Assembly: GCA_965648905.1 (NCBI GenBank)
Contig: CBFGIT010000001.1
Coordinates: 96,001-160,000, forward strand
DNA from: a candidate division WOR-3 bacterium
GTDB lineage: Bacteria; Hydrothermota; Tepidihabitantia; Tepidihabitantales; Tepidihabitantaceae
Length of the DNA stretch: 64,000 bases
Direction of reading: 5' to 3'
Shown here in pieces: positions 28,972 to 49,330 of this stretch. Made by a program: the position numbers and the translations under genes. Each line of letters starts with the position of its first letter. Position 1 is the first letter of the stretch. The notes beneath the pieces are model-generated. The model was not told where the DNA came from. It saw only the letters and a list, made by a program, of their open reading frames with translations, and made no database searches.

Positions 28972-30069
28972 GTGGTGCTAAAAGCGTCCTCTGGCTTCAC
29001 GCGAACGGTCTGCCTTGCCCTCGCGCTGGTGCTTTCTGCCTGCGACAGACCAAGCCCGCGACGCCGCCCCCGGCCACGTAGAAGCGTCACCGTACAGCAG
29101 CGGGGGCCAACAGAGAAACCAGTGCCTGCGTCGTCACCGGACTCGCTGCGCTACGAAAAACCGGTCATGGACCAACGGGTCCGCCAAGTGCCCGATGAAC
29201 TCAGCCGCGCAGTCAGACAAGACCCTGAGACCCATCTGCCCAAGCTGGTCGCATTCCTGGTCAGAGACTGCCACACCGACTCGGCCAAGGCCCGGGTAAT
29301 CCACGACTGGCTGGCCGACAATGTCGCCTACGATGTGCAGGGCTATGCCTCTGGTCGGTTGCCGAGCGGAAGGCCGGCTGACGTGCTTCGCACGGGCAGG
29401 TCGGTATGTCAGGGATTCGGCAACTTGTTCGAGCAGATGTGCAGGCTCGCCGGACTCGAGTGTGTCACCATTTCCGGATATGGCCGAGGCTACTCCTTCC
29501 GCCTCTTCGAAAACGAAGACCCAGCCAAGAGCAACCATGCTTGGAACGCCGTCCGAATCGAAGGCCGCTGGCGCCTGGTCGACGTCACCTGGGACGCCGG
29601 TCACATCGCTGGCAGGCAGTACATCAAAGACTACAACCTAGATTACTTCTTCCTCGACCCGAGTGCTTTCATCTTCACCCACTTTCCAGCCGACCCTTCC
29701 TGGCAGTTGCTGACACCGGCACTGACCCCGCAACAGTTCACTAACCTGCCCTTCCTGCGCGGCAACTTCTGGACCTATAAGCTCAAGTTCACTACTCAAT
29801 TCTCGCGAGTCAACCGAGTTGACCGCAAATTGGAGTTCTCAATCATAGCGCCGCCTAACGTCTCAGTGCTGGTCAACCTGTTGTCTGAAGACGAGCGCGA
29901 GATTCCATCAGCGGCCACGGTTCGCCGCGACGGCTGCGCACACGACATAGCGGTCACCTTCCCCAATCCAGGCCGCTGGCTCGTGAGGGTCTATGCTACG
30001 GCCAGCTTGCCTTCAGACATGCACCCTGGGGTCGCGGACTTAGGGTGCCGACTCGATATGTGTCGCTAG
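28972..30069 (+). CDS. Transglutaminase-like lipoprotein
   Basis: Lipobox LSAC; catalytic triad SVCQG, HAWNAV, VDVTW. Confidence 0.85.
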   Translation: MVLKASSGFTRTVCLALALVLSACDRPSPRRRPRPRRSVTVQQRGPTEKPVPASSPDSLRYEKPVMDQRVRQVPDELSRAVRQDPETHLPKLVAFLVRDCHTDSAKARVIHDWLADNVAYDVQGYASGRLPSGRPADVLRTGRSVCQGFGNLFEQMCRLAGLECVTISGYGRGYSFRLFENEDPAKSNHAWNAVRIEGRWRLVDVTWDAGHIAGRQYIKDYNLDYFFLDPSAFIFTHFPADPSWQLLTPALTPQQFTNLPFLRGNFWTYKLKFTTQFSRVNRVDRKLEFSIIAPPNVSVLVNLLSEDEREIPSAATVRRDGCAHDIAVTFPNPGRWLVRVYATASLPSDMHPGVADLGCRLDMCR

Positions 30070-32186
30070 CGCCGACTCTGCTCCGAGGCATTTGGCCCCG
30101 CGCCGGTAACCCCGTCGCTGCCATCCGTTGGCTCCGACGTACTCGACGGCCCCTTGTTACCTTTCTGCGGCAGCTTCTCAAGCGCCGACGACGCGGCTGC
30201 CATGACGATGGAAACCAGAAGGAAGATAATCACGCCCCAGAACTGAGTCGGGAACGACACGACCTGTCCCCGCCCAAGACACCAGAGCAGGGACAAAGGC
30301 CAAACCATTGGGAGGAGGGGTATGACAAAGAGGAGTGGGTAGACGAGCCACATCCAGCGGGCAGGGACGCGCTTCAGGGCTAGCCGCTTGAGGGATCCCA
30401 ATTGACGGAGCCAAAAATGAGTTGCCAGCGCAGAAGCAAAGAGGACCAGCAGAAATAGCATTGCTGCAGGTATCCCGCGCGGGCGCGCGAACGAACCCAC
30501 GATGACAACACTCCACCATCCCAGGACCACGAGCTCAGCCAAAGCTAACAGCCGCGGCGGTTGCCATGTTGGACAACGTCGGAGCCGCACTGTCGCGCTC
30601 ACGCAGTACACGGCGGCAAGGAAGAGTATCGTTAAGACTACGATTGCCCGGTCGCAGTCGGGGATGATGTAGTCATTGCTGCTGGTTGAGATGTCGATGC
30701 GCGAATTGGCGCGGTCGTGGTCAACCGTAATCAGACTCAGGCGCCTCAGGTCGAAGCTCATGAAACTGGGCGAACCCCCGATATCGGTGAATATCGACTG
30801 CTCCGCCCCGGTTCTGCCAACCCGAGCGGCCTCAGACAACGCCATTGCCCCCCGCAACAGATCGCCACCGGGGTCTGACGATACGAGAGCGACAACCTCT
30901 CGACGACCGGGTCTGTACGTGACCGCAATCTCCTTCTTCCCCGAAATAGCTTTCATCTGCCTGGACTTACCATTCAGTCTGATTCCCAAGGCTTCCATGC
31001 CCGGTAATGAGAAGATGTGGGTAGTACAACGTGCTGCAGCCGACAAGAGCCATGGTGTCACAGCCGAGAGTTGGACGAATCGACCATCTCGTTCGACAGC
31101 GAACGGCCCGAGCTTCTTCTTCGGCAACTCAGAGTTGCACCAGTACGGAGGGTAGATGCAGATGGTGGTCGACTCACCAGTTGCTGAGAAGTCCAGTACA
31201 AATGGTTCAGCAGTACACAGCATCGCCAGTAAGCGGTCGATTGCCTCCCGCACCCTGGCAACGAGGACGGCTGGGTCCCTGTACTGCCATACCCTGACGG
31301 TCAGCGCGGTGTCGCTCAGATCCAGCCTCGGGCACAGGCGCTGCCACAACCTGCCGCGGTAGTATCTGGTCGTGTCACGTGGCCCCTTCTGGAGAAAGAC
31401 AGGGAGCAACACGACCAGTTCGTTGGCTGACTCGAAGAGCCGGACAGAGTTCTCAAACGACGAATCAGCCCGAGCCAAGTTTTCGCCATTGAGTACGACG
31501 CATGAGTTGTCTGACTCCTCGCTCCAGATGCCATCCGTGAGGATGATCGCGAGCTTCACCTTTCTGTCCTTGAGCTCATAACACGCGCGCGGTTCATCCT
31601 CTCTCCGGTCCTGCCCGAACCACCTGAACAAGTCGACCAACCTAGTCTGGGTGTCGGTGCAGCGCACCCTGTCGCACGGATCGAACCCGCGAACGGCATT
31701 ACCGAAGAGAAAAATGGGAATCCTTGTGCCGACGCGCACGACTGAGCCAGGCCGCTTCGCGACCATGTCGAGTAGGGTTTCGACAGCGTGACAGCTTTGT
31801 GAGACATCGAGGAACAAGGCAACCTCGACCGTCTGGTCCAGAGCACTGTAATCTAGCCCGGTCTCCACAACACACTGAGCAAGCTTCCTGTCAAGGAACA
31901 AACCCCGCTTGATCTTACACACGTACTGCACGAGTTTCCCGGCTTGCTCGCTCATGGGGGAGGTTCCTTCGATCTTCTGTTGTATGTACTCCTCAACATC
32001 CCTTCGCACTTGACCTGTCGGCAGCGTATCGTGTCGCAATATCAATTCCCGGCGGATGGACTGGTACGTAAGCACCGTGTCCTTCTTGTCGTATGCACGC
32101 AGGAACGTGCTGATCTGTTCGCACAACGAGTCACTCAGTACACCGAACGAGCTGACCAACACTGCCGACAACATGATAGTGTACAT
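30066..32186 (-). CDS. Exported/membrane vWA-domain protein
   Basis: Signal peptide, MIDAS-like LFLDVSQS and IILTDG, several C-terminal TM helices. Confidence 0.65.
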   Translation of the reverse strand: MYTIMLSAVLVSSFGVLSDSLCEQISTFLRAYDKKDTVLTYQSIRRELILRHDTLPTGQVRRDVEEYIQQKIEGTSPMSEQAGKLVQYVCKIKRGLFLDRKLAQCVVETGLDYSALDQTVEVALFLDVSQSCHAVETLLDMVAKRPGSVVRVGTRIPIFLFGNAVRGFDPCDRVRCTDTQTRLVDLFRWFGQDRREDEPRACYELKDRKVKLAIILTDGIWSEESDNSCVVLNGENLARADSSFENSVRLFESANELVVLLPVFLQKGPRDTTRYYRGRLWQRLCPRLDLSDTALTVRVWQYRDPAVLVARVREAIDRLLAMLCTAEPFVLDFSATGESTTICIYPPYWCNSELPKKKLGPFAVERDGRFVQLSAVTPWLLSAAARCTTHIFSLPGMEALGIRLNGKSRQMKAISGKKEIAVTYRPGRREVVALVSSDPGGDLLRGAMALSEAARVGRTGAEQSIFTDIGGSPSFMSFDLRRLSLITVDHDRANSRIDISTSSNDYIIPDCDRAIVVLTILFLAAVYCVSATVRLRRCPTWQPPRLLALAELVVLGWWSVVIVGSFARPRGIPAAMLFLLVLFASALATHFWLRQLGSLKRLALKRVPARWMWLVYPLLFVIPLLPMVWPLSLLWCLGRGQVVSFPTQFWGVIIFLLVSIVMAAASSALEKLPQKGNKGPSSTSEPTDGSDGVTGAGPNASEQSRR

Positions 32187-32265: not shown

Positions 32266-33798
32266 CTACTGCTTGACCAGCCTCGCCCCGCCCCAAACCG
32301 ACCAGTCCCAGTAATTGTTCTCAACAGTCTCTACGATGAGGTCCATCTGCTGCGCGCCTTCGACGGAGACGGAAACGGTCTTGCGGTCATCCCAGTCCAT
32401 GACTCCGCTGTCATAGACCTTCTTGCCGTCGAGCCAGACCTGGAAGATGACGCTGCCGCGGCCACCCGCAAAGTCGCCCGGCACACCACGTCTGGGATTG
32501 CCGGCGTCCCATAGTCCGATGTCGCTTTCAAACCGCTTGTACCGCCCGTTCAGTTTCCACCGCAGCCTAGCTGGTGCGTGTGTATGAAGTCCTCGTCGGT
32601 AGGTCGTTCCGCAGATGACAATGGGTCGTCCTCTGAAAGCGTCCTTCTCTAGTTCACACTGTTCAACTTCGGCCGGCTGAAGGTCGCTGACGTACACCGT
32701 TTCCTCGGGCGGCGGTGGCGGCTTGGTGGCGTGTTCAATATGTCGAAGGATGACCGCATCCAGATAGGTCTCTGCTTTGTGCGTGATCGTCCAGTCTTGG
32801 TCATAGACCACAACCGCGGGCGGCTTGACGTCGAGCCTGCGAAGGAAATCCCGTTCGGCAATGGCGTTCTCGAAGCTGATGCCGGCTCCGGCCACGAATC
32901 TCCGGGCCTCAACAGTATCGTCCGGATACGCCAGCACGCCGATGACTCTGAGCAGGTCTGAGCGAGTCTGCCGCGCCAACCGGTCAAGGGTTTTCATGTC
33001 CTCCTTCGTGCGCGCGTCGAGCGGGGTCCAGAAGTAGAAAACAGTCCGGGTGGGTAGGACCGGCCGACTTGATACCGAGTTGCGTCCGTCGAGTGCTGGC
33101 AAACGGAACTGCTCAGCAGCGGCTACGGATTTCCTTCTGGCCGGCGTTGGGGCTAACGGCGGGGGCATCCTGCTGCTCCGTACGTCTTCAGCAGACGTGA
33201 ACGGCACGCCAACCGCAAGCCTAGCCGCGGCATAAAGAGTACCAACTACCGGCGAGCCGGACGGCCCTATCAGGAGATATCCGACCTCCAGTCCGGTGAT
33301 GGCAAACAGGTGCAAGGCAGCATACAATGCGTAGTGCTTGCTGCCTTTCATCCCCCAGGCATTGCCCGTAGCCACGAAGGACAGGCTACTGAAATAGCCA
33401 ACCTTCCCAGCCATAATGGTGGTATCGGGATCGCTCAGCGGAAGGAGAAAACGCAACTCTGGCGTGAACAACCCGTAGCTCTCCATAGCCGACGGCCCAC
33501 AGGACCAGCCGTCAGCCACCGTGACACCAACACCAATCCCCGGCATGAGGCGGTTGCTGCCGCCAAGGCCATAGGTGAGTTTTAGGGCCTCGAACCTGCC
33601 CGTGAGTTTGTCAGGGCCAACTGGGAAACCAACCTCAGCGCCAACGAGCTCGAAGTAGTACCACTTGGCCATTAGTGGACTAAGTGATGCTATCAAGGCG
33701 ACAATCGTGCACACTCGGAAGGCCACCGTCTGAATCAACGGACTGCGAAAAGCGAACGATGACCTCGCGGAAACGAAGCTGGTGCCATACGTTTTCAC
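32266..33798 (-). CDS. Exported protein with Cys-less thioredoxin-like domain and C-terminal NPCBM/NEW2 domain
   Basis: FRLPALDG, VFYFWTP, PAVVVYD; RGLHTHAP, GSVIFQVWLDGKKVYDSG, DWSVWGGARL. Confidence 0.7.
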   Translation of the reverse strand: MKTYGTSFVSARSSFAFRSPLIQTVAFRVCTIVALIASLSPLMAKWYYFELVGAEVGFPVGPDKLTGRFEALKLTYGLGGSNRLMPGIGVGVTVADGWSCGPSAMESYGLFTPELRFLLPLSDPDTTIMAGKVGYFSSLSFVATGNAWGMKGSKHYALYAALHLFAITGLEVGYLLIGPSGSPVVGTLYAAARLAVGVPFTSAEDVRSSRMPPPLAPTPARRKSVAAAEQFRLPALDGRNSVSSRPVLPTRTVFYFWTPLDARTKEDMKTLDRLARQTRSDLLRVIGVLAYPDDTVEARRFVAGAGISFENAIAERDFLRRLDVKPPAVVVYDQDWTITHKAETYLDAVILRHIEHATKPPPPPEETVYVSDLQPAEVEQCELEKDAFRGRPIVICGTTYRRGLHTHAPARLRWKLNGRYKRFESDIGLWDAGNPRRGVPGDFAGGRGSVIFQVWLDGKKVYDSGVMDWDDRKTVSVSVEGAQQMDLIVETVENNYWDWSVWGGARLVKQ

Positions 33799-36700
33799 TT
33801 CTTGTGCAGCCGATAGTTGAAGAACTGCTTCCCTTCGGTTACGGTCTCCAGCGCGAGGTGAGATTCGTAACCCTCCTTGGTGAGTACAAACGTATGTTGT
33901 CCGGCAGTCAGGTACGCTTCGGTCGTGGTGTAGCCGTATGACGTGCCGTCAATATGAACCAGCGCACTCTCGGGCTTTGAGTCAATCCGGACCTTCAGTA
34001 ACTGGCTGAGGGCGAAGGATAGTTGCGACGCTCCTGGCTCAACCGTTCTCCGTTCGCCTGATACAGTTGCGTACCCAGGTAGAAACAGGTCAAACCTGTG
34101 CTGGCCTAGCTCCAGATCAACCGTCGTTGGGGTCTTGCCCCAGGGCGTGCCGTCGATCGTAAGACTGGCGCCTTTGGGCTCGGACTCGATGCGCACTGAC
34201 TGCTTGCGGCGCACAGCAGAGGTCTCCTGCGGAGGAAAAAGTGGTGGCTTCGCTGAGCGCTTCTCTTCTGGCAGGGGATTCTTTGGCCTCTCCGTATTCG
34301 TCTCTTTCTCAGCAAATGCGTCCAGCGATACGAGCCCGAACCGACCTTCGCTTCGCCGGAATCTGACGGTACGGCCGCTCACGTCCACCACCTCAATACT
34401 TTCGCCTGGTGTGAGATGCCCATCCGGTCGATTGGTAGCGTAGTCCACAACAGGGGCTGCGCTCAGGACTTTGCGGAACTTGCCGTAAGGAAGAAAGGCG
34501 TCACTGTGAATCCAGCCCTCGCCTTGCGGGGTTCTGACCGAGTACCAGCGCTCGTCGCCGAGTGTTGAATCAACAACCTTGACTGTCGCGCCTGCTGACA
34601 GGGTTGCCTTGATAACGGAGTAGCGGTCCGCGCCTTCGCGCAGGTTCACCGACTCGCGTACGACTGTTTCGGTGCGGCCGCGAAACGCCCCGGCGTAGCA
34701 GTTCCATGCCTGCGGAGCTACACGACCGAGTAGCAAACCGCACAATCCCAACGGCACGAGTACCGCCCAATGCAGGTAGGCGTAGAGGTGCTCCTTAGGG
34801 ATGAGAGTAGTCAGGAGAACTGTGTAGAATGGCACGAGACCAAACAATACCTGAGGAGCTGCAAGAAAGACAAGCCCTGCGCTGAACACCCAGCACATTG
34901 CCTTCCAGAGCCACTGGGCACGCAGGAACAAGCCCAGAAACAAGGCTCCGAGCGCGACCGCAAGCACTGCAATGTCGAAGAGCGACCAGATTACGCCTGA
35001 GGTCGTGGCGAAGTAGGGCAGAAAGGCGAGCCCCGGAAACAAGGCGAGAAGGACAGCGGCCCAACGGTAGTCGGTCGTTGGTGCTGGCTTTGGTTTCCTG
35101 ACCGGTTTGCGTAGGGTTATCTTTCCCCACTTGACACCAGGTTTGACGTAGTCGGCCTTCCAGCCTGGCGGAAACTCCTCCAGCTTGAGCAATTCACGCC
35201 ACCTTTGTCTGAGCTTGTCCAGGTTGTCCAGTGTCGCCCGTTCTTCCTTGGTCATGTCAGCGCGATAGTCCGACGGCGTTAGCGCATCCAGCAAGTTCAG
35301 TGCCTGCTCCTGGACCTGCTTGTTCATGAGGTCCAGTTTCCACTTCGGAGCAAAGCTGGAGAGGTCGTCTGAGCGGTTCTTGACCTTGGTCATGAAGGTC
35401 TGGGCTCTGGCGATGTGCTGCGGTACACGCTCTACTCTTCTGACGAGCTCATTCAGCAAGTTGCCGGTCTCTTTGACAAGGTCGTCCATCTTTTCGTGCG
35501 CCTCGACCTTGGCCTTGCGAAGAACCTTCTCTCCGGCCCGGTATCCAACCTGAACAACCTTGTCAACCGTGAGGTCGGAATCACTGGTGAGTTTGTCTCG
35601 GTTGACAACCTCCACTTCGTGCTTCAACTGGTGCTCGGTAAGACCGCCTTTCGGGTGTATTTCCTGAACACCAAGCTTGTCCAGCCACCCACTCAGAAGC
35701 TCGCCCTGCTTCTCCGTGCGCAGCAGGTCAAACAGGCCAAGGCACTGCTCCGGCTCAGCCATCCCCTTTCGGGCCAGGCCGAGGACAAGGGCAAGGGAAC
35801 CAGCCTTGGCCCCAAGTTTCTCTTCGGTCTCACGTGCCAGCTTCCAGAGCGGCGGTTCATCGAGGGCCAGCTCAACCACGGCCTTCTTCTCCATGTCGGC
35901 GGACGCGAGTCTGAGACCGGGTTCAATCACACGAGCAACCAGGAGCTTGCCCTCCTGCGCGATGAACTCCTTCACGTTCTCCGGTGGTTGGGCGCCGCGG
36001 AACTCGTAGTTACCCAGTTCGGCTGGCGTGATGCTGGTGTCAATTACCGGCTCGACCAGTTCCAACCCGCCAAGACGGGCGATGTCTTCGTAGTCGGCCC
36101 GCTGGAAGCCGGCGCGGATGAGCTCCGCAGCCAGCTCGAAGAACACACGCTGGTCATGGTGTCTGGTCAGGAGCGACTGTACGAGCTGCTCGATCGTCTC
36201 AACGCGCTTCTTGTCGAGCTGGGCTGCCCGGCGGCGCACCGCGGTCCGCACCTTGTCAGCAGCGCTCTTGACCGGAGCGGCGCGGCTGCGCAGAGTCAGC
36301 ACACCGCGGAAAGCATCGTGGAAGCATTCCTTGGACGAAAACACATTGATGTCTGAACGACCGACGCGCTCAAGCACCAGCCCGGCCAGGGTCCTGAGTC
36401 CTTCGGTTCCGGCCCAGTCGCTCAGAATCAGGGTACGACATTGCGCATCGGGGTCAAGGTCTTTGACTGCCTTGGCAAGCGCAGGCAGCGTTGCCTCAAG
36501 CCCAGGGACTTCTGCCGATGCGAAGACAAATGGGCCGCTCCAGCGTTCCTCTCCCTGCAGCGCTGCCTGGAAGTCAGCGAATATCTGGTTCTCGTGCTCG
36601 GGGAATAGACGCAGGTGCTGCTCCAGTTCCTCGCGTTCTGCCTTGAGCCTGTTCCAGATCGCCTGCAAAGACAAGTCCGGCAACTCCTGTTGAGCCGCGA

Positions 36701-37058
36701 TGTCATAGTCCTTGACCACGCCGGCAAGCGCGGAACTGAATCCAATCGTCAGCACCAGAGTTGGCCCGCGCGACTTCTCGGCAAAGGCGTAGTAGACAGC
36801 CAAAAGTCGCGGCATAGGCGCCACCCGCTTGGCCAGCCGTTTGGGCAGGTCTACGCCAGCGAACACTGCAAGTTCCTTGGCTTTCATGACTTCGGGCAGG
36901 TCGACCAAGCTCGCGTTCTTGGGCGGCAACGTCCTCAGGTCGCCTACGCCGGTGCCTACTGCTATCGTGTACGTATCCTTGTCCCGCCACCGGTCAACAA
37001 TCGTCAATGATGCGGGCTTCGGCCGGCTGGCTTGATTCTCAGGTTGACTGGATGGCAT
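33795..37058 (-). CDS. Membrane protein with tandem GrpE-like domains, SH3b and PEGA domains
   Basis: LGVQEI..VDKVVQVGYRAGEKVLRKAKV and VARVIEPGLRL (GrpE head); TM block; VNLREG..WYSV..GWIH (SH3b); two IxSxPxxAxxxIDG (PEGA). Confidence 0.72.
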   Translation of the reverse strand: MPSSQPENQASRPKPASLTIVDRWRDKDTYTIAVGTGVGDLRTLPPKNASLVDLPEVMKAKELAVFAGVDLPKRLAKRVAPMPRLLAVYYAFAEKSRGPTLVLTIGFSSALAGVVKDYDIAAQQELPDLSLQAIWNRLKAEREELEQHLRLFPEHENQIFADFQAALQGEERWSGPFVFASAEVPGLEATLPALAKAVKDLDPDAQCRTLILSDWAGTEGLRTLAGLVLERVGRSDINVFSSKECFHDAFRGVLTLRSRAAPVKSAADKVRTAVRRRAAQLDKKRVETIEQLVQSLLTRHHDQRVFFELAAELIRAGFQRADYEDIARLGGLELVEPVIDTSITPAELGNYEFRGAQPPENVKEFIAQEGKLLVARVIEPGLRLASADMEKKAVVELALDEPPLWKLARETEEKLGAKAGSLALVLGLARKGMAEPEQCLGLFDLLRTEKQGELLSGWLDKLGVQEIHPKGGLTEHQLKHEVEVVNRDKLTSDSDLTVDKVVQVGYRAGEKVLRKAKVEAHEKMDDLVKETGNLLNELVRRVERVPQHIARAQTFMTKVKNRSDDLSSFAPKWKLDLMNKQVQEQALNLLDALTPSDYRADMTKEERATLDNLDKLRQRWRELLKLEEFPPGWKADYVKPGVKWGKITLRKPVRKPKPAPTTDYRWAAVLLALFPGLAFLPYFATTSGVIWSLFDIAVLAVALGALFLGLFLRAQWLWKAMCWVFSAGLVFLAAPQVLFGLVPFYTVLLTTLIPKEHLYAYLHWAVLVPLGLCGLLLGRVAPQAWNCYAGAFRGRTETVVRESVNLREGADRYSVIKATLSAGATVKVVDSTLGDERWYSVRTPQGEGWIHSDAFLPYGKFRKVLSAAPVVDYATNRPDGHLTPGESIEVVDVSGRTVRFRRSEGRFGLVSLDAFAEKETNTERPKNPLPEEKRSAKPPLFPPQETSAVRRKQSVRIESEPKGASLTIDGTPWGKTPTTVDLELGQHRFDLFLPGYATVSGERRTVEPGASQLSFALSQLLKVRIDSKPESALVHIDGTSYGYTTTEAYLTAGQHTFVLTKEGYESHLALETVTEGKQFFNYRLHKK

Positions 37059-37128
37059 TTTCTTGCCCGGTCGGTCTTCGTCCAGTTGTCATGGCTTCTC
37101 GCGCCACCCCGTCCGTTCCCCTTCTGAG

Positions 37129-38322
37129 CTATCCGGTCTGCTCGACAACCACCCTTGGCTTGCGCAGGACCTCGCCAGTAGTGATGATGCGGTAGCCCGG
37201 CCCTTCGACCTCGGCGACTCGCACCTTCTCGCCGTAGCCGACAACGCGCACGATATCCAGGGACGCGCTGTCACCCACGGGGTCGTGCTTACGCGGAGCG
37301 AATTCCTCGACGCCGAGGTTTCGCATCAAACTCCCGCGCTCGGACTTCAGCTCATTGGTGTTCGTCTTGTCAAGGAGGTCGCAGAACGCGATGGGACGAT
37401 GGTAGACGGCAAGCTCGGTTAGTGCCCGGTCGAGCCGGTCAAGTGCGATGCCGAACTGGTTTCTGTCCTCGTCGAGTGTCGTCGGGTTGGTCCGCTCGGC
37501 CTTGCGTGTTAACTGCGCAAGGTTGTCTGCCATCTCCGTGGCGCCAAGGTAGATGCGGTACCTCTGTCCCATGTCAGAATCCCCCGCAGAGCTTGACCTC
37601 AGTTTCCTTACAAGCGCGCTCGTCGCTTGGGCTGTCGCGAGTATCGGGTGTCGAGCCTCGATGTCCTTCAGTGCGTCCCTGGCTCGCTGGGTAAAAGCCT
37701 GCTTTGCTTCCTTGAACCGCGCCGACTCCTGTTCTGACTGCAACTGCCTTATCTGGCCGGCCACCAATTGCGGCATCTTCGACAGCGCCTCGCGGGTCGC
37801 TGCGTCAGCCTGGTCTCGGGCCTTTGTCTGCTCATCGAGTCGCTGCTTCACCTCTGCCACATCATCGTGCAGTTTCTTCAGAGATTGCCTAAGACCCTCG
37901 AAGTCCGAACTTCTCTTATCGACTTCAACGTCTGGCTTCGACGCTTGCTCGCCTCTTCGCAGTATCCGAATTGAGGCTATCAGCAACGCGAGTCCGACAC
38001 CAAGCAGCGCTGTACTGAGCGCCAGGACAACCAGGGCTGTTACTGACACTCGAACCGCAGTACGGTCGGGTTCCTGCTGACCGCTGCTGTCAGGTAGTGC
38101 GGTGTCTGTATCGGGAGCGTGACTGCTCTCCTGCGCGGCAACTGCCGAAACGACGTCCTGTCCTGCGAGACTCCCGCTGTCTTGCTCGCTGGCCGTGCTT
38201 TCTGGCACAGGTTCACCCTTGTCCTGCTGCTGGGACGCGGGGCGTCTGCCCGCGCCGACCGCCAGCAATACAAAGAAGCAGGCTGCAATCATCAGGCCGG
38301 CCCGACTCATGGCAGTCCTCAT
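37129..38322 (-). CDS. Membrane-anchored GrpE-like protein
   Basis: Signal/TM segments, coiled coil, C-terminal LGVEEF..VAEVEGPGYR..GEVLRKPRVVV. Confidence 0.72.
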   Translation of the reverse strand: MRTAMSRAGLMIAACFFVLLAVGAGRRPASQQQDKGEPVPESTASEQDSGSLAGQDVVSAVAAQESSHAPDTDTALPDSSGQQEPDRTAVRVSVTALVVLALSTALLGVGLALLIASIRILRRGEQASKPDVEVDKRSSDFEGLRQSLKKLHDDVAEVKQRLDEQTKARDQADAATREALSKMPQLVAGQIRQLQSEQESARFKEAKQAFTQRARDALKDIEARHPILATAQATSALVRKLRSSSAGDSDMGQRYRIYLGATEMADNLAQLTRKAERTNPTTLDEDRNQFGIALDRLDRALTELAVYHRPIAFCDLLDKTNTNELKSERGSLMRNLGVEEFAPRKHDPVGDSASLDIVRVVGYGEKVRVAEVEGPGYRIITTGEVLRKPRVVVEQTG

Positions 38323-40979
38323 CGCGATTTCACCTCCATCTTCTCACGCTTGCCGCCAATCTCGCAATACGCCTCAAGCTCGCCTTTGTCGGTTATCTTC
38401 AGGATGACCGGAATATCCCTGACGTTGGTTGACTGGACATTCTGCTCAAGCTGGTATGTGCGGTACGGGACTGTCTGGGGCTCCTGTCCCAAGGAGAGGT
38501 TCTCCTCCAATCGAAGCTCAAGCCCCGACCTGCTTGCGGCCTTGACAAGTTTGAGACCAGGTTTATCGGACCTGAACTCTTTTCCGTACTCCGCGCCCCA
38601 TGGCACAAGTGCCCTGAACGCCAAAGCGCCGGAGGCATCCCCTGTTGCGGCGCCGAGTCGGCCGACCTGCCGCCACCAGCGCCGCTCGCCCTGCAATTTG
38701 AACTCATCTGACACGCGCGTGTAAATAATCGCGCCCAAGGAAACACACTCCTTCAGGATAGGTCTGCCTGCGGAATCCCGGACGTAGTCAGTGCCCTCCG
38801 CAAACCGCGAGAACACCTGGGGCACTGTCGGCAGCAGAGAAGCCTTGCCGCACAGCAGAAGCCGGTCGGCCTTCTTCAGGTTGCATCTCCCCATGAAGAG
38901 GTCCATCTCCCTTTCGAAGTCCCGCAGGTATTTTCGTGCAATGCCGAGAATGTCGTCGATGGAAGCGTCTAGTTTCATTTGCTTTCCCCGCGCTATGTTC
39001 ACCGGGATTGCGCCCAGCTTCCTGATCTCCTTTATCCAGGTTCTGTATCTTTCGTTCTCTGGAATCGCGTGCAAGCTGCCGAGGCATTCCTCAAGCAGCC
39101 GATCGTCGCGGGGCACCAGAGGGTAGTCCGTCGTGGACTGCTCGCCGGCACCGGGTTTCACCACCTCTGATACCGCCAACTTGACCAGCTCAGGCGCCAC
39201 TGGCTCGAGATCTGGCGGCACGTCTCCCTGCTTCGCGATGTAACGCCCAACTTCAAGAGTCAGGACTGTGCCCCCCAGATTCTGGTCACCCCATGCACCG
39301 ATGACCTCTACCGTCTCTGGGCAACGACTGGTGCTCTCCCCCCGGTTACTCTGTGTTACGCGGAAAAGGGTAACATCAGTTGTGCCGCCGCCAAAGTCCA
39401 TGACCAGCAGAGTATACTCCGACCGAGACTTGATAGACTCGTCTCTGCGAGCACCACTGTAGAGGTAGTAAATGCCGGCTGCGAGCGATTCGTCAACCAC
39501 CTCCGGGTCCGCCACCTCCAGCCCCTTTGCTTGCGCGGCCTTCACGAACACGTCCCTCAGCACTTCGCGCTGATGAAGCGTGAACCTGGTAGGGACAGTG
39601 AACACCAGCCGCGTTGGCCGCGCTTTCAACTGACGTCGTGTGAGACGAAGCAACTCCATCACCGCGTACTGAGCAACGTCCTCGGCAGGTATCTCGCGCT
39701 CTTCGCCCTGCAGCACAAGCTTCTCAACGGCCCCAGTGCCAACCCGCGGCTTCACCGCACGGACGTAGCTCTCCCTGCGCAACCTCCCCAGTCGTGCAGC
39801 CTCCCTGCCGATGTCAAACACATACGGGGGTGTCCGGTCTTGCTTGTAGTCCCTGAAGTAGACGTCGGATATGATGACCGTCTCAGAGTCCTCAAGCACG
39901 AGATTGACCGGCTTCTGGCCATCCCAGCGGGCAACGGCCGATGCGCTCGTACCATAGTCGACAGCCAAGTCGTCCTTATAGACATCGTCCACAATCCGGG
40001 CATTGACTCTGCAGGTAGAAATTCTGGGGGCGTTGGACTTGAACTCGATCGTAACCGGTATACTGCCACGCGCCTTGGCCGTGGTCCGGGCCTCCAGCTT
40101 GACCTCGGCTGAGCCGCCGGCAGGAACCTCGCTCGCGCCAAGCTCGTAGGACCAACTCGCTTCAGGGTTGTCGCACTCCAGGACGACTTGCTCGATACGC
40201 AACGGGTCGTCGCCGACGTTCTGCAGCTTGACTTTAGTGGTACCACGGTCCTCAGGGTGTGTGTCGAAGTACTGAAGCTGACCGTCGGGAAAGACTATCT
40301 CCGGCGGGCGCTTGACTATCGCCTTGAACGTGCCGGTTAGAATCAGACTGCCAGTTCCGCTGCCGCGCGTCAGTGTGAAGCTGACCTTGGCTTCTCCGCG
40401 CTGCCGTGGGTCAACCTGCACGGGCACTTGAGCAGTTCCCTGGGCCAGCTTGACCGGTTGCCTCGGAACCTTGATACTCAGCAGATTCGGCTGGTCTACT
40501 TCTAATTCCAGGTCAGCCTCCAGGGCACAGTCCGAGGTGAAGCTGAGCATTGCCTCGGCTGAACCGAGGTAGACACTGACGTCTTTGACCGTGATGCTGC
40601 GCGGAGCAGGGAAGAGCCATATTTCGGCTTCGTTCAAGACCCCGAGGTCGTCGTAAACTGAGACGAAACACGACCTTGGAAACACCCCCGCCTGTCCCGG
40701 GTCGACAGTAATCTCGACTCTGGTTTCGTGCTGGCCGACGCTGCGATCTTGCCCAGAGATTCGGACCCACTGTTCGTGCTGGAATCTAAGCACCGAGAAA
40801 GCGCCTGGCGAGCGGTCACGAACCTGGAACGACTCGGTAACCGACGTGCGCTTCTCCCGGTCAACGTAGAGGTTGACCGTCTCAAACAACTCGTGCCCGC
40901 AGAGTGAGCAGTACCGGTCGCCGGACAGCGGCTCCCAGTTGCCACACTTGGGGCATCTCTCTTGTGGCGCCGGTCTCAT
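38319..40979 (-). CDS. Atypical Hsp70-family ATPase with N-terminal zinc ribbon and Ig-like domains
   Basis: CPKC..YCSLCG; LQNVGDDPLRI (Ig-like); AVDYGTS, FTVPTRF, DESLAAG, MDFGGGTTDV, LCGKASLLP, CVSLGA. Confidence 0.88.
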   Translation of the reverse strand: MRPAPQERCPKCGNWEPLSGDRYCSLCGHELFETVNLYVDREKRTSVTESFQVRDRSPGAFSVLRFQHEQWVRISGQDRSVGQHETRVEITVDPGQAGVFPRSCFVSVYDDLGVLNEAEIWLFPAPRSITVKDVSVYLGSAEAMLSFTSDCALEADLELEVDQPNLLSIKVPRQPVKLAQGTAQVPVQVDPRQRGEAKVSFTLTRGSGTGSLILTGTFKAIVKRPPEIVFPDGQLQYFDTHPEDRGTTKVKLQNVGDDPLRIEQVVLECDNPEASWSYELGASEVPAGGSAEVKLEARTTAKARGSIPVTIEFKSNAPRISTCRVNARIVDDVYKDDLAVDYGTSASAVARWDGQKPVNLVLEDSETVIISDVYFRDYKQDRTPPYVFDIGREAARLGRLRRESYVRAVKPRVGTGAVEKLVLQGEEREIPAEDVAQYAVMELLRLTRRQLKARPTRLVFTVPTRFTLHQREVLRDVFVKAAQAKGLEVADPEVVDESLAAGIYYLYSGARRDESIKSRSEYTLLVMDFGGGTTDVTLFRVTQSNRGESTSRCPETVEVIGAWGDQNLGGTVLTLEVGRYIAKQGDVPPDLEPVAPELVKLAVSEVVKPGAGEQSTTDYPLVPRDDRLLEECLGSLHAIPENERYRTWIKEIRKLGAIPVNIARGKQMKLDASIDDILGIARKYLRDFEREMDLFMGRCNLKKADRLLLCGKASLLPTVPQVFSRFAEGTDYVRDSAGRPILKECVSLGAIIYTRVSDEFKLQGERRWWRQVGRLGAATGDASGALAFRALVPWGAEYGKEFRSDKPGLKLVKAASRSGLELRLEENLSLGQEPQTVPYRTYQLEQNVQSTNVRDIPVILKITDKGELEAYCEIGGKREKMEVKSR

Positions 40980-41025: not shown

Positions 41026-44000
41026 CTAGAGACCTGACCGGTCGACCCAGGCTTCCTTCTTCAACGCCGGGAACTTGGCGTACTGGGGCCAGTCGAGGAA
41101 CTCACCGACCTGGTTTCTGACCCAGTCAGCCAGCGCGTCTCCGGCAAGGCCTTTCGGAGGCAACTCCAGATTGCCCGCAGCCTGCGAGACCGCCTTGTGC
41201 TTTGCGTCCACAAGCTCGTGTTCCGATGTCCCAACTGTGAAGCCGGGCTGCGAGGAGAGATACATGAGGACGTAGCTATACGCCTTACGCTCCTGCTCGC
41301 TCAACGCTGCCTCACGCTCGCTGATAACAGCCAGCAACCGACCTCGAAGCCCAGCGTCATGCATCAAAGTATCCATGGCTTCTTTGCGGTTTTTCCCGAG
41401 TTCGATGTCAGCAATACGGCCGACTTTGACCTTGCAGTACCCATATGCCGTCACGCGGTCCTTCTCGTAGCGCCGGATGACTCCCAAAATCGAGCCAAAC
41501 AGCAGGGCCTCAAGTGACTCCTTGGCGACGTGCGCGTCCTGTTCGGAGTACAACACCAGGTCATCAAATTGCCCTTCCCAGCGCTTGTCCAGGTGGAGCG
41601 GTATCTGGTAGTAGAGCTTGCCGAACTGCCGATTCTCACGCAGGTCCCGGTAGAATGAATAATAGGCATCGTGACAGGCACCGGAGACGACCGGTACGGC
41701 CGGCAGAGGAAAGGCATAGCAGATTGTGTACAAGAACACCTCACTCTTCCGTGTGGACTTGAGAACCTGAAGCTGGTAGTCACGGGAGGCCAGCGCACCG
41801 CCAAGCTCCTTCTCTAGTGCATCAACGGTGTTCTTGTCCGCATCGGCTGATACACCCAGGTAGGCTTCGCGCTTAGCTTTGACCGGCTTGCCACCAAAGT
41901 GACCGGTCAGCTTGACCAGGGGCAGTCCGGCCAGAGCCAGATCGGTCGCCCAAGCCTTCAGGGACTTCTTGGTGAACTCGGGGTGGGTAAGCACGTCCTC
42001 GTCGCGCGGGTATGAAGCAAAGTCCTGAGTGAATCGGTTGTCGCAGAACTTGGCAAGCAGCGCGCGTACCCTCTCCATGCTCTCTTGAAAACGGAAGTCA
42101 GCAAACTCAAGCAGCGACATTGGTCTTGGCAGCCCTTCGTGGGCCAGGAAGCCCTTGGCTTCGCTTGCGGCAGACACTGGTTCTCCACGGAGCCTGTAGA
42201 AGCCGGGCCAGTCGCGGTCATAGTTGAATATGCGTATGAAGAGCACATCGTCACCAGGGCGGAGGCGTGCGGTCTTTTCTTCCAAGAACGGCCCAGTCAT
42301 GGCCTCCATGTCGGTTAGGAATTGTGGCAACCGGGATGTGCGACTGACAAGATACGACGCCGCATCCATGACCGCCTGCTGGCACAGCCCGTAGAGCACC
42401 GCCTCGGCTCGGGCAAAGCCAAACTGCGCCTCGGCGTCCTTGACTTTGTCGGCAAGCAACTTGACCGAGAAGTCGCGTTCGTTCAATAGGCCGACCTTAC
42501 TGTTCGTCACAGCCTCGGTGAGCTCGTCAAGGAACCGGTCCCTCTCTCCCTGCCAGAGACCGGCGTCCTTCTCGGCCCTTTCGCGGCGCTTCGCGCAATC
42601 GGACTGGTCGGACGTGAACACGGTCTGAAGCTGCTCTTGGATTCTCGCCAGATACCCGGTCTTCTCGGCCAGCAGCCCGCGCAGTCCTCGTCCCGGTTCC
42701 TCCAGGCACCTGACCAACCATTGCTCCATTACGGTCTTCAGTTGCTCGGTGACCGCGGGCAGCTTCACCTTGAGCCGATGCGGAATATTGATGTCGGCGT
42801 CCAGCCGAGCCGTGTCCATGCCAACGTAATGCGTGTCCACGTCGTTGAGCGCCTTGCGTGCTTCCTCGATGTCGGCAAGCGTGCAACTGCCGGCTTTCGA
42901 GCGCAGGCCGGCAACTGCGCTGTCTGCTGCCTGCGTGAGTTTGTCGCGCCAGCCGGTGTCGAATCTGCGCGCAACGCCATCCAGCGTGAGCCCGAAGTCA
43001 GCCAAGTCGTGCTGGATGCTTCCGACCATGTCTGGGTCGGCGCAAGGCCGGACCCAGTAGCTGGCAATGTCGTGGCCAAGTTGGGCAGCGCAGGCGCCGC
43101 GGAGGGCATCAACCGGTATCTCAATCTTGCTCATGCCAAATGACCCGTAGCGCCGTGAGTACTCCTGAACCAGAGCCATCTGATCAACCTTGACGTTGGC
43201 GCCTTCGCCGCCTTCTAGGTACTGAACAACGTTGCTGTAGCTTGAGCGCTTGATAGTCGAGAAAGCACTGGGCATGAAGTCCATGTAGAGCGACTCGGCA
43301 ACCATGCGGAATAGCTCCTTCCTGGACTTGATGCCAACCTTCTCGTTCTCGGCACCAAGAACGTAAGTAACGTCAACCGGTGGACCCACGAGGGATTGCG
43401 GGTCGCCTTTTGTCCAGACTACATCGAACGTGGCTATTCCCTTCTTGCGTTTTTCGGACCTGGCCTGGCTGTCACCGGTCTGCTCACTGCCGGAATCGGC
43501 CTCGTCCACACAGAATGTGTAGTGCTCAAGCTCCTTGAGCGCGGCATAGGCATTGGCATAAGAGCGCTTGGACTGCTCGTCACTGAGGCTGCGGAAGTAT
43601 ACATCCGGCAGAACGCAGATGCCGGCAACGTGTTTGAACTGCTTCTGCATCTTTTTCTGAAGCAGAGTCAGCAGAAACGTCGTGTCCAGGAACGAACCGC
43701 CGCCCGTGCCACCCGCGACTGAGAAAACAATGAACACCTGAACGCCCAGGTCGAAGTCGTTCATTGTCGTTCCCGGCAGGAACTCCTGGGTCGCGCGGAG
43801 GTCCGGGAGCATGAGGAGGTCCCGGGAGAGCTTGTCGATGATCCCTTGCACCCGCTCGTGGTGGTAGAAGAACGCCAGCCGACCAATGGAACGGACGTTG
43901 CCGGCACCATCAGAGATTTTCCCGCCTTTCCGCTCTACTTCCGGGTACAGCCAGTCATGAATGTAGCCCCAGCGACCCCTGTTGTCAAAGACGTCAACAA

Positions 44001-44274
44001 AAGCCTGTCCAACTTCACCCTCGAGCAGCGCAAGGCTGTCTGTGTCAGTGAATCTGACCGACTCGTAGATGATATCTAGTGGCTCTCCCCACGCGCCTCC
44101 AGCTCTGATGTCGGTATCCAGCCACAGGTAGGCAACGCAAGGCAACCCGGGCATGTTGAAGTTCTCGTAGAACTTTCTTCGGAGCCGCAGCAGTACTTCC
44201 TTCCCGGTTCCGCCCAGGCCGATGAACAGGGTCGGCCTGATTGCACCGCCCTTCTCTTCTCTTGCAGGTGGCAT
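41026..44274 (-). CDS. Large tubulin/FtsZ-like GTPase (Tubulin_2/FtsZl1 type)
   Basis: PTLFIGLGGTG, GAGNVRSIGRL, SVAGGTGGG signature, ANAYAALKEL; long helical C-terminus. Confidence 0.9.
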   Translation of the reverse strand: MPPAREEKGGAIRPTLFIGLGGTGKEVLLRLRRKFYENFNMPGLPCVAYLWLDTDIRAGGAWGEPLDIIYESVRFTDTDSLALLEGEVGQAFVDVFDNRGRWGYIHDWLYPEVERKGGKISDGAGNVRSIGRLAFFYHHERVQGIIDKLSRDLLMLPDLRATQEFLPGTTMNDFDLGVQVFIVFSVAGGTGGGSFLDTTFLLTLLQKKMQKQFKHVAGICVLPDVYFRSLSDEQSKRSYANAYAALKELEHYTFCVDEADSGSEQTGDSQARSEKRKKGIATFDVVWTKGDPQSLVGPPVDVTYVLGAENEKVGIKSRKELFRMVAESLYMDFMPSAFSTIKRSSYSNVVQYLEGGEGANVKVDQMALVQEYSRRYGSFGMSKIEIPVDALRGACAAQLGHDIASYWVRPCADPDMVGSIQHDLADFGLTLDGVARRFDTGWRDKLTQAADSAVAGLRSKAGSCTLADIEEARKALNDVDTHYVGMDTARLDADINIPHRLKVKLPAVTEQLKTVMEQWLVRCLEEPGRGLRGLLAEKTGYLARIQEQLQTVFTSDQSDCAKRRERAEKDAGLWQGERDRFLDELTEAVTNSKVGLLNERDFSVKLLADKVKDAEAQFGFARAEAVLYGLCQQAVMDAASYLVSRTSRLPQFLTDMEAMTGPFLEEKTARLRPGDDVLFIRIFNYDRDWPGFYRLRGEPVSAASEAKGFLAHEGLPRPMSLLEFADFRFQESMERVRALLAKFCDNRFTQDFASYPRDEDVLTHPEFTKKSLKAWATDLALAGLPLVKLTGHFGGKPVKAKREAYLGVSADADKNTVDALEKELGGALASRDYQLQVLKSTRKSEVFLYTICYAFPLPAVPVVSGACHDAYYSFYRDLRENRQFGKLYYQIPLHLDKRWEGQFDDLVLYSEQDAHVAKESLEALLFGSILGVIRRYEKDRVTAYGYCKVKVGRIADIELGKNRKEAMDTLMHDAGLRGRLLAVISEREAALSEQERKAYSYVLMYLSSQPGFTVGTSEHELVDAKHKAVSQAAGNLELPPKGLAGDALADWVRNQVGEFLDWPQYAKFPALKKEAWVDRSGL

Positions 44275-44285
44275 GTTATCCTCCT

Positions 44286-44885
44286 CTAGTTTCCTTTAGC
44301 ATCTTGCCTGGTCCTGCCAGACCCTGGGTCGGCAACGTCCGGCCGGGAGAACCTGCTGCCCGCAGGCTCGGCCTCCTCGGTTCCGGTGGACCAGTCGCTG
44401 TTGTCTTCAGCCGTCGGTGTGATTACCGGCAGGACGAACCAGCACAAGGCGGCAGTTGCTGCCGCGACAACGATAGCTACGAGAATCAGCACCCAGCCCA
44501 GCGCGCGCGCCATCAGCACTATCGCCACGATGAAGAGCAGTCCGGCAGCCCCGGCAAGCCAGTACCAGGAGAATGTGCCGGCCAACCCGACCGCAACCGC
44601 GGCAGCCAGAAAGCACACGGCGTACCCAAGTCCGGCCGAAGCTGCTGAAGCGACCGAGGCGTCCTGACGCAGCAGCTTGCGGTACACACCCCGGCCTGCG
44701 ACCCAGCCGAGGAAGACTGCGACCAGCATTACGACAATCCTTGCTATCCACAGGAACCCTTCAACTAAGTGAGCAGTCACGCTCCACTGCAGCGCCTGGG
44801 TTGTGACTACGAAAGTGCTGATGAACACAAGCGCGATGAATACGAGCCAGTATAACGGGCCGAGTCCATGTCGTTCTTTGGCCAT
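44286..44885 (-). CDS. Hypothetical polytopic membrane protein
   Basis: About 5 hydrophobic helices; AGGAGG RBS. Confidence 0.75.
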   Translation of the reverse strand: MAKERHGLGPLYWLVFIALVFISTFVVTTQALQWSVTAHLVEGFLWIARIVVMLVAVFLGWVAGRGVYRKLLRQDASVASAASAGLGYAVCFLAAAVAVGLAGTFSWYWLAGAAGLLFIVAIVLMARALGWVLILVAIVVAAATAALCWFVLPVITPTAEDNSDWSTGTEEAEPAGSRFSRPDVADPGSGRTRQDAKGN

Positions 44886-44904
44886 GTTACCTCCTGGTAG
44901 GGCC

Positions 44905-46434
44905 TTATGAGTCACTGGGACGACCGCGCCTTTCGGGCCGTTCCTTTCGATCTTCTCTGGTCTTTCTGCGTATCGGACCGCAGACCATCAGTATCGTCGT
45001 GCCGTCGTGCCGCTTCAGAGAGAACTCAAGACCCGGCACTAGTCTGACGTACTCCTGCCCGTCAGTCAGCCTGTACCGCATCGCCGGCCGGAAAACGTGC
45101 CCGACGTCAACCTTCCCCAGCGTATCACGCTCCATAATCAGCTCGCCGGTATCGCTGTCAATCCGGCACTGGACATCCCGGTCGTGCAGCCGGGCAAAGA
45201 CCTGGAGCCGCCGCTGCCCCAGCAATGGTTTGACCAGCCGATAAGTCACCAGGCACGCGGCGATGACCAGTGCCAGTATCACGAGCAGCAGCAGGGCCGG
45301 CAAGGGCCCGTAGTCGGCCTCCAGCGGTATCGTCACCAGAGTGCTGCAACTGACGGTTCTTTCGCTCAACTCAGCGGGCAGTCGGTTGATTCCGAACACC
45401 TTGCCCTCGCGACGAGCATCTTCCGGAGTAGCCGCGTCGTACTTCGTCTGGTACTCGCGCGTCAGCGACAGGTCGCTTGGCCGGATGCTGACGACCACCG
45501 GCAGTTCCATCGGTGCATTGACCCTGCCGCCGGCGAACGCTGCCTTCAGCAGGCTGCCGGTCAGCGTCACCTTGCTCTTGTAGCGCATCTTGAACCCGGG
45601 ACCGGTGCTCTGGCCCGGACCCAGCCCCGGAAGTGTAGTGGGCTGAACGCTGTACTTCACAGGTGCGAGGCCGAGCCCGGACTTGCCTGCTGCGGCCGTG
45701 CGAATCAGTCTTGGCGTGTCGATCTTCGCACTCGAGAAGCTGATATGGCTGAAGCAACTGACGAATCCAATCTGGACCGAATCGCAGATGCTCTGGCCCA
45801 GGATGTACTTGCGGGCCCGGGGTTTGTGCACCGGCTCGGCCTTCACGGTGTTCCGGCCCAGAGGCTTAACGAGGAGTGCTTCGGTCTGGTAGTTCTTCTG
45901 AACACGCCCGGAAAGAGCGCTCTTCATCTGCTCGAACCGCGCGTCCTGGTTCCAGTCAAGCAGCAGCGCATACACGGTCAAGCCCTGTGTTCCCGCAGGC
46001 TGCAGAATCGGAAAGAAGTAGACCTTCTTGACTCGAGGTCCTTTGAGCAACTCGTAGAACTTGTCCAGGTGTGCGCCTTCCGGATTGCCCGGCTGGTGCT
46101 GGATGTTGTCGGTGACAATCCAACCGATGTCGTACTTGCGGTCGAGCACGTACTTCGCCGCCTTGTCAATCTCGGTGAACGACCAGGCGAAGTTCTCGTA
46201 GGCAAAATCCTTGTCGCCTGTTGACTTGACCGGCTTGACTTCTGTGCTGAACACGGCCAGGTCGGGCTTGCCGTACTCGCTGCATACGGCAAGCAGGACA
46301 CGGGTGAGGTCTTCGACTGAACCGCGCTCGAAGTAAGGCTTCATGCTGCCTGACCGGTCAACGAGCACTACCTGACCGGCCAGTGCAAGTTGGCCAAGAA
46401 GGACGAATCCGACCAGCCGTGTCAACCTTGCCAT
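44905..46434 (-). CDS. Exported vWA-domain protein with C-terminal TM anchor
   Basis: Signal peptide, VLVDRSGSM MIDAS, IVTDN, TM helix, short cytoplasmic tail. Confidence 0.78.
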   Translation of the reverse strand: MARLTRLVGFVLLGQLALAGQVVLVDRSGSMKPYFERGSVEDLTRVLLAVCSEYGKPDLAVFSTEVKPVKSTGDKDFAYENFAWSFTEIDKAAKYVLDRKYDIGWIVTDNIQHQPGNPEGAHLDKFYELLKGPRVKKVYFFPILQPAGTQGLTVYALLLDWNQDARFEQMKSALSGRVQKNYQTEALLVKPLGRNTVKAEPVHKPRARKYILGQSICDSVQIGFVSCFSHISFSSAKIDTPRLIRTAAAGKSGLGLAPVKYSVQPTTLPGLGPGQSTGPGFKMRYKSKVTLTGSLLKAAFAGGRVNAPMELPVVVSIRPSDLSLTREYQTKYDAATPEDARREGKVFGINRLPAELSERTVSCSTLVTIPLEADYGPLPALLLLVILALVIAACLVTYRLVKPLLGQRRLQVFARLHDRDVQCRIDSDTGELIMERDTLGKVDVGHVFRPAMRYRLTDGQEYVRLVPGLEFSLKRHDGTTILMVCGPIRRKTREDRKERPERRGRPSDS

Positions 46435-49324: not shown

Positions 49325-49330
49325 TACAGC

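Follow-up and report, generated by a model that had tools for sequence, protein, structure and literature searches.

Putative membrane-anchored and tandem relatives of GrpE in an FtsZl1-Hsp70-vWA operon of a candidate division WOR-3 bacterium

GrpE is usually taught as a soluble homodimer that serves DnaK. Two neighboring genes of a candidate division WOR-3 bacterium encode relatives of GrpE that depart from this form. The genes, here called A (33795..37058, minus strand) and B (37129..38322, minus strand), are located in a stretch of 64,000 nucleotides (GenBank assembly GCA_965648905.1, contig CBFGIT010000001.1, positions 96,001 to 160,000), which is referred to as the window. Judged from their sequences, A and B are derived from GrpE and are not ordinary GrpEs, and nucleotide-exchange activity cannot be assumed for them. 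Neither is a soluble single-unit protein, as both possess putative transmembrane (TM) segments and A possesses tandem units. They belong to an operon that also encodes an Hsp70-like protein (H), an FtsZl1 GTPase (T), and a von Willebrand factor A (vWA)-like protein. A and B are most likely cofactors of H, their presumed partner, and not of the housekeeping DnaK. The original prediction described A and B as receptor-like nucleotide-exchange factors. Its account included neither the operon nor a domain modeled at the N-terminus of A, and both alter the mechanism that can be proposed.

GrpE-type units of A and B

Gene A encodes a protein of 1087 amino acids. It contains a putative ASKHA (actin/Hsp70/sugar-kinase) fold domain, three GrpE-type units, approximately five TM segments, two SH3b domains, and two PEGA domains, and all coordinates given for it are on the minus strand. 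Unit 1 (residues 256-400, 35859..36293) was recognized by profile, model, and alignment, unit 2 (residues 403-522, 35493..35852) by Pfam GrpE and model, and unit 3 (residues 523-655, 35094..35492) by model, alignment, and motif score. The three head motifs that had been quoted from the sequence were located at residues 374, 501, and 637, with VARVIEPGLRL being the motif of head 1 at residue 374. The heads were said to be followed by a TM block with SH3-like and PEGA domains beyond it, and this is the order found. A block of five hydrophobic segments (residues 666-776, 34731..35063), identified with a hydrophobicity scale and a charge count, is followed by SH3_3 (residues 803-853, E 1e-8) and two PEGA stretches (33801..34202, E 6e-23) in Pfam. 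A second SH3b domain, at approximately residues 861-916, is predicted from a relative, and the two SH3b domains occupy 34311..34652. P0002, a relative of A, has two SH3_3 stretches in Pfam.

Gene B encodes 397 amino acids, and its start overlaps the stop of H (ATGA). The protein has a low-complexity spacer, a TM segment (residues 97-115), a coiled coil, and a GrpE-type stalk/hairpin and head (residues 207-397). The neighbor of A had been described as a TM, coiled-coil, and GrpE head protein, and B fits this description with the addition of a signal-peptide-like segment at its N-terminus.

Unit 2 is the only unit of A above the Pfam GrpE cut-off of 25.8 bits (residues 455-519). It scores 25.9 bits within A and 31.5 bits as an isolated piece. 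Heads 1 and 3 of A and the head of B were not called by Pfam GrpE when the pieces were scanned separately. A profile made from B and 31 relatives aligns to residues 243-400 of A (hhalign E 2.3e-4, probability 44%). It matches canonical GrpEs weakly but in register, with the landmarks YLRAxA, LLxxLD, G-EE, GY, and RPA.V. A head-only profile was built without canonical GrpE and was used to search 272 phylum genomes. It produced 14 matches in 10 of these genomes, and 10 of the matches were profile members or their close kin. Each of the remaining four was a grpE gene located immediately upstream of dnaK (E 1.6e-6 to 4.7e-4). Thus, the proposed homology with GrpE was upheld. Nothing useful was retrieved with a profile of 31 closely related canonical GrpEs, which proved too narrow.

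Residues 15-660 of A were modeled with AlphaFold2 from an alignment of five rows. Units 1 and 2 were each predicted as three helices followed by a nearly identical series of strands, mostly with a predicted local distance difference test (pLDDT) score of 77-93. Head 3 was unfolded in the model (pLDDT 35-41), and folding of A from its single sequence gave a mean pLDDT of 37.9. Unit 3 retains LLDAL...LLKLEE...KPG..W..LRKP and a helical hairpin of canonical length, and the alignment indicates that a central hairpin of approximately 25-30 residues is missing from it. On a four-block motif score, for which the blocks were picked after the alignments had been seen and B was included in the profile, unit 2 reached 38.1, unit 1 23.2, and unit 3 16.0. 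Six of the 5903 six-frame open reading frames (ORFs) of the genome scored at least 20, and four of these are GrpE or GrpE-like (B, canonical grpE, A, and a copy on contig C51). The score of unit 2 was exceeded by none, and that of unit 1 was matched by one unrelated ORF. Ten of the 5903 ORFs scored above 16.0, six of them presumably by chance. Support for unit 3 as a GrpE-type unit is moderate because the blocks were chosen after the fact and B was in the profile. Two clear heads and a possible degenerate third had been proposed. Alignment, model, and motif score point to two complete units and a third unit whose head is truncated.

The units also depart from GrpE in their helices. From LLD to GLEE, B and units 1 and 2 have 15-19 residues, whereas unit 3 has 33 and two short GrpEs have 34-36. 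The coiled coil and the YL..A landmark are present in B, and units 1 and 2 of A are without a long stalk.

Topology was predicted by hydrophobicity scale and charge count, which is not a dedicated predictor. Of 35 B-family sequences scanned, 31 had a TM segment, and the GrpE side was richer in lysine and arginine in 29 of these 31, with one opposite and one tie. This charge bias places the GrpE-type units in the cytoplasm, the location that the original prediction requires of them. In A, the N-terminal hydrophobic segment is absent and the loops between the five segments alternate between charged and uncharged, so the SH3 and PEGA domains are likely outside. The ortholog of A in a second genome (G122) has a single TM segment between its heads and its SH3 domains. 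It separates them across the membrane, and the receptor-like layout is therefore real.

The N-terminal domain of A and the relatives of A and B

A Pfam match was not found for residues 15-250 of A (36309..37016), and the domain gave no significant sequence match to the PDB, to H, to DnaK, or to four MreB-sized proteins. It was recognized from the AlphaFold2 model and fold searches. In the model, pLDDT is 42-49 over the first 70 residues and mostly 66-88 in the core. The top four Foldseek matches of the model of A are Hsp70 nucleotide-binding domains (NBDs), with E from 1.7e-5 to 4.3e-5. In VIA, the domain matched Ssz1 with Z 11.9 and a root-mean-square deviation (rmsd) of 4.6 over 227 aligned residues, and this was tied with actin and ROK kinases. 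The range over ASKHA structures was Z 11.9-12.4, rmsd 4.2-4.8, and 213-227 residues aligned, and HSP110 gave Z 10.8. Membership in the ASKHA superfamily is well supported by the model, with the fold call resting on five rows and a first lobe of low pLDDT. A family assignment is not supported, as a domain of approximately 236 residues that ties with actin and ROK kinases cannot be placed in any one family. The Atlas pointed to MreB/EutJ/MamK-type families at 0.85-0.88, which is a lead only.

The domain is probably a pseudo-ATPase with eroded nucleotide-binding motifs. At the positions of the phosphate-1 DxGT, phosphate-2 DxGGG, and adenosine GG sites it has IVDRWRD, TIGFSS, and ILSDWAG, respectively. 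These positions were mapped from the order of strands in the model, and the sequence alignment to DnaK is not significant. D-x-W and DWA are invariant across the four N-domain rows.

Full-length relatives of A are P0002 (50% identical over residues 240-800), P0035, and the ortholog in genome G122 (L013:8931-11621). In the latter, a B-like stalk without a head is joined to the N-domain, two full-length heads, one TM segment, and SH3, and PEGA is absent. The orthologs thus differ, with three heads and approximately five TM segments in the window and two heads, a headless stalk, and one TM segment in the second genome. The headless copy of the B helical domain opens the ortholog, and it hints that B and A pair through those helices. 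P0027 joins an A-type N-domain to one B-type unit and is without a TM segment. The pairing of B and A probably recurs, in P0002 with P0003 and in P0018 with P0027, as the longest contigs are of equal length within each pair. The ORFs of A and B are intact, and their relatives are approximately 30-57% identical. Chance motifs or a wrong reading frame were considered and are ruled out by the intact orthologs and the coupled genes. Word-index protein searches with A found one relative, and shorter relatives were not found.

The C-terminal 223 residues of B found 31 representatives at E <=0.001 among 1.84 billion sequences (50% clustering). In nearly all of them, an N-terminal membrane helix precedes a C-terminal head. 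Conserved in 32 B-family sequences, for which mean column identity is 17%, are the stalk Tyr, LLD, and the head motif GY..G..L.KP.V. Word-index protein searches found no new relatives of B, a plasmid match was not found, and the full-length B profile gave coiled-coil noise against the PDB. One family of genomes (f21) possesses B relatives with an exported domain, a TM segment, and a GrpE-like region (L071:994-3360, L072:2422-4863, L073:13668-16082, and L075:1-477), of approximately 800 amino acids where complete. They sit upstream of an aminotransferase-like gene. These proteins form a membrane GrpE family that may function without a private Hsp70.

The operon and the proposed role of A and B

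All of the operon genes are on the minus strand. Gene H (38319..40979, 886 amino acids) encodes a zinc ribbon, an Ig-like region, and an Hsp70-like ATPase, recognized by motifs and hhalign. The motifs DYGTS, K, DES, DFGGGTTD, and CGKAS are intact, the C-terminal part is short with no apparent lid, and the hhalign probability against DnaK is 98.7. Gene T (41026..44274, 1082 amino acids) encodes an FtsZl1 (Pfam Tubulin_2) GTPase with E 2e-57. It is followed on the map by a 209-amino-acid protein with five TM segments in a hydrophobicity scan (44286..44915), a vWA-like protein with a signal peptide and one TM segment (44905..46434, weak Pfam match, E 0.04), and a double-zinc-ribbon protein with a probable start at 47876 (46422..47876, weak match, E 0.08). 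The operon has the features of the FtsZl1-vWA operons, namely a Tubulin_2 GTPase, an adjacent vWA gene (on the weak Pfam match), and membrane proteins.

The order Z-V-TM-T-H-B-A is conserved in genome G122 at 29-43% identity. The vWA-like protein has a 40% identical ortholog there, and a multi-TM ORF without a BLAST match to the 209-amino-acid protein is found at the equivalent place. H-type and A-type genes were found in the same two of 272 phylum genomes, and a close FtsZl1 was found in 2 of 132 class genomes. The GC fraction of the operon is 0.592 against 0.623 and is lower than in all 247 18-kb windows, which suggests that the operon is accessory. Canonical grpE-dnaK is encoded separately in the same genome.

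The reading that is preferred here, with a probability of roughly 0.55, is that B and A tether H to the membrane and stimulate its exchange of nucleotides, that A is a wall-attached scaffold or receptor modulating H, and that H governs FtsZl1 assembly. Acting either as a homodimer or in a pair with A, B would hold H against the cytoplasmic side of the membrane and accelerate its release of ADP. A would span the envelope as a scaffold or receptor, with its SH3b and PEGA domains gripping the cell wall and its tandem units serving as a built-in pseudo-dimer or a multivalent dock. The probably inactive actin/Hsp70-fold domain of A could tune H, either as an Ssz1/Hsp110-like partner or as an internal decoy. 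Local cycling of H would then control FtsZl1 assembly at envelope sites. The role is most likely accessory, in envelope surveillance or conflict. The patchy distribution and the parallels with known conflict operons favor an accessory conflict role over membrane remodeling. In a version that is unlikely as it stands, A is a self-inhibited chaperone-gating receptor whose dead Hsp70-fold domain occupies its own tandem GrpE heads. A wall cue sensed by SH3b/PEGA would displace the N-domain, the freed heads would switch on H, and activated H would license FtsZl1 polymerization at the threatened site of the envelope. The complex predicted for the NBD of H and two soluble parts of B scored 0.21 (mark 0.32), with controls not folded.

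Several findings weigh against the preferred reading. Compared with GrpE, B and units 1 and 2 have a helical hairpin that is shorter by approximately 18 residues. The genome's own GrpE has the Gly equivalent to residue G122 of Escherichia coli GrpE, which neither B nor any unit of A retains. Among the 14 rows that the head profile gave against PDB sequences, GrpE appeared at E 0.72 and 1.0, neither of which is significant. The fold-search lists for the A model were filled by matches to the N-domain and bear on that domain. Three J-domain genes are present in the genome and none is within the operon. The full gene context is known for two loci only, those of the window and genome G122. PADLOC 2.0, with 10 proteins, gave two weak helical matches on A (E 0.008-0.01) and no convincing system. 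In family f21, a TM-anchored B relative lies between housekeeping genes in four of four genomes, an H-type Hsp70 was not found in these four, and Tubulin_2 is present in one of them, on a contig other than that of the B relative. B-type proteins thus do not need the FtsZl1-Hsp70 operon.

The short hairpin and the lost Gly favor a rival reading, in which the heads dock H without opening its nucleotide cleft. A and B would then bind and localize H, and perhaps the N-domain of A, as structural anchors that tie H and FtsZl1 to the membrane and wall. The hairpin region of GrpE forms a four-helix bundle and touches the subdomain IIB hairpin of DnaK, and GrpE with G122D abolishes exchange and still binds DnaK weakly, according to the portion of the article available (PMC10825016). 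Tandem repeats and a truncated third head also fit avidity better than catalysis. However, the stalk Tyr, LLD, and GY..G..L.KP.V are conserved across the 32 B-family sequences, and H presumably requires exchange, given that its catalytic motifs are preserved. Docking without exchange is considered somewhat unlikely.

The f21 genomes bear on a different possibility. B-type proteins could serve housekeeping DnaK in general, as its exchange factors or anchors at the membrane (quality control of membrane proteins would be one example), and the operon could have recruited one of them. The Pfam HSP70 search of these genomes found DnaK and an MreB-sized match of approximately 350 amino acids and nothing else, and the few outside matches of the head profile are all canonical grpE. 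A divergent Hsp70 could escape notice in genomes that are 80-95% complete, though, and B is directly behind H in both the window and genome G122. The architecture of A is also left unexplained, and the proposal appears improbable. The variation among A orthologs in number of units and TM segments, along with the truncated head 3, could instead mean that the heads were repurposed as generic interaction modules (for FtsZl1, vWA, or invader proteins) and that A is a decaying fusion without an Hsp70 role. Effector modules are "typically in inactive form" according to the abstract of Kaur et al. (2020) (PMC7159879). This is highly improbable, as the ORFs are intact, conserved at approximately 30-57%, and consistently adjoin an Hsp70.

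Other genes surround the operon. Downstream of A and overlapping it (GTGA) is a gene with a C-terminal NPCBM carbohydrate-binding domain (32266..33798, minus strand), for which no ortholog match was found in the genome G122 locus. Its translation reads as an N-terminal exported region and a thioredoxin-like-looking middle. The last gene of the run (30066..32186, minus strand) encodes a 706-amino-acid exported multi-TM protein with a vWA-like DxSxS seen by eye and without a family match. Farther downstream, on the opposite strand, is a transglutaminase-like/KY-like gene, possibly a linked peptidase, at 28972-30069 (+) in the window and L013:5639-6703 (+) in the second genome, with 47% identity. 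Divergently upstream of the operon are a potassium-channel-like gene (NCBIfam PRK10537, E 9e-8) and an exported protein in the window (48188-50278, +), and a Ser/Thr-kinase-like gene and a TM-PEGA gene in genome G122 (L014:4070-6428).

Six other FtsZl1 genes of the class gave weak matches, with approximately 24-39% identity over short stretches. A, B, and H were not found in the flanks of five of these loci, several of which stop at a contig end. Most of the other phylum FtsZl1 genes (L015, L017, L018, L019, L020, and L086) adjoin a vWA-like gene. From the translations, three of these loci adjoin a branched-chain-amino-acid-type ABC transporter and a response regulator, and the L017 gene adjoins CRISPR RAMP-like genes. 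Pattern scans for the locus gave nothing usable in metagenomes (one unrelated match), viral contigs, or species genomes, and relatives were not found in Acidobacteria reached through a plasmid record. A second private Hsp70 and a short GrpE-like gene are present at G000:C51 (L003, L078). As read from the translations, this pair adjoins AAA-type ATPase, kinase-like, and FGS-lectin-like genes.

Comparison with known systems

Ssz1 and Hsp110/Sse1 are Hsp70 paralogs that are not chaperones themselves but regulators of an Hsp70 partner. The modeled N-domain of A shares the NBD fold with them (Ssz1 Z 11.9, HSP110 Z 10.8). Unlike them, it has approximately 236 residues and is tied with actin and ROK kinases, and the analogy is functional only. 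GrpE itself (PF01025; PDB 1DKG, 3A6M, 4ANI, and 8GB3) resembles A and B in the stalk end, the helical hairpin, the beta-head, and the neighboring Hsp70 gene. In contrast to GrpE, A and B are predicted to be membrane-anchored, the helices of the four-helix bundle are shortened, and the G122-equivalent Gly is absent. A differs further in that its units are in tandem in one chain, which also carries an actin/Hsp70-fold domain and SH3/PEGA domains. A 2025 review treats GrpE as a homodimer, and "transmembrane," "tandem," and "fusion" are absent from its available text (PMC12987570). Full-text searches of the literature did not turn up a membrane-anchored or tandem GrpE, and the source-data tables of Kaur et al. 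could list such architectures.

The FtsZl1-vWA operons were defined by Makarova and Koonin (2010) (PMC2875224). According to the available portion of that article, they resemble the operon of the window in that the FtsZl1 is approximately 1080 amino acids long and contains a coiled coil, a membrane vWA gene adjoins it, and membrane proteins specific to the lineage are encoded. A table in its supplement contains a 1083-amino-acid "GrpE" (Cagg_1315) that adjoins FtsZl1 in Chloroflexus aggregans and a 1626-amino-acid DnaK (amb2961) in the FtsZl1 operon of Magnetospirillum (PMC2875224). The GrpE and Hsp70 components are not discussed in the part of the text available (PMC2875224). In contrast to those operons, the OmpA, kinase, and P-loop GTPase families were not found by Pfam in the operon of the window.

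The GAP1-N2 DO-GTPase systems of Kaur et al. (2020) share the tubulin and vWA theme and the HSP70 and GrpE theme, as far as the available text describes them (PMC7159879). They also have a second HSP70 without a peptide-binding domain and NTPase-TM-SH3/PEGA fusions, as seen here (PMC7159879). The tubulin and HSP70/GrpE themes are non-overlapping in that text, whereas they are joined in the operon of the window (PMC7159879). GrpE is not described there as membrane-bound, repeated, or fused, and it is not mentioned in two of the supplements (PMC7159879). Membership of the operon in the GAP1-N2 DO-GTPase systems was rejected. PF19993 and PF20013 had no matches in the 99.6% complete genome, with positive controls and with DO-GTPase1 not searched genome-wide, and a DO-GTPase/GAP1-N2 Pfam match was not found in the nine operon proteins.

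The operon is related to the predicted FtsZl1 and HSP70/GrpE conflict operons and appears to differ from them in its relatives of GrpE, which are putatively membrane-anchored and, in A, tandem and fused to wall domains. Their layout suggests that a private Hsp70 and a tubulin-like protein may be tethered to the cell envelope. If so, Hsp70 nucleotide exchange would be used as a localized and possibly signal-gated switch. If the gating version were true, it would be transmembrane signaling with Hsp70 nucleotide exchange as the output. FtsZl1 operons were predicted in 2010, and the articles found report no tested function for them. A, B, and H give a biochemical handle on these operons, since binding and ADP release can be assayed directly with short soluble pieces of the three proteins.

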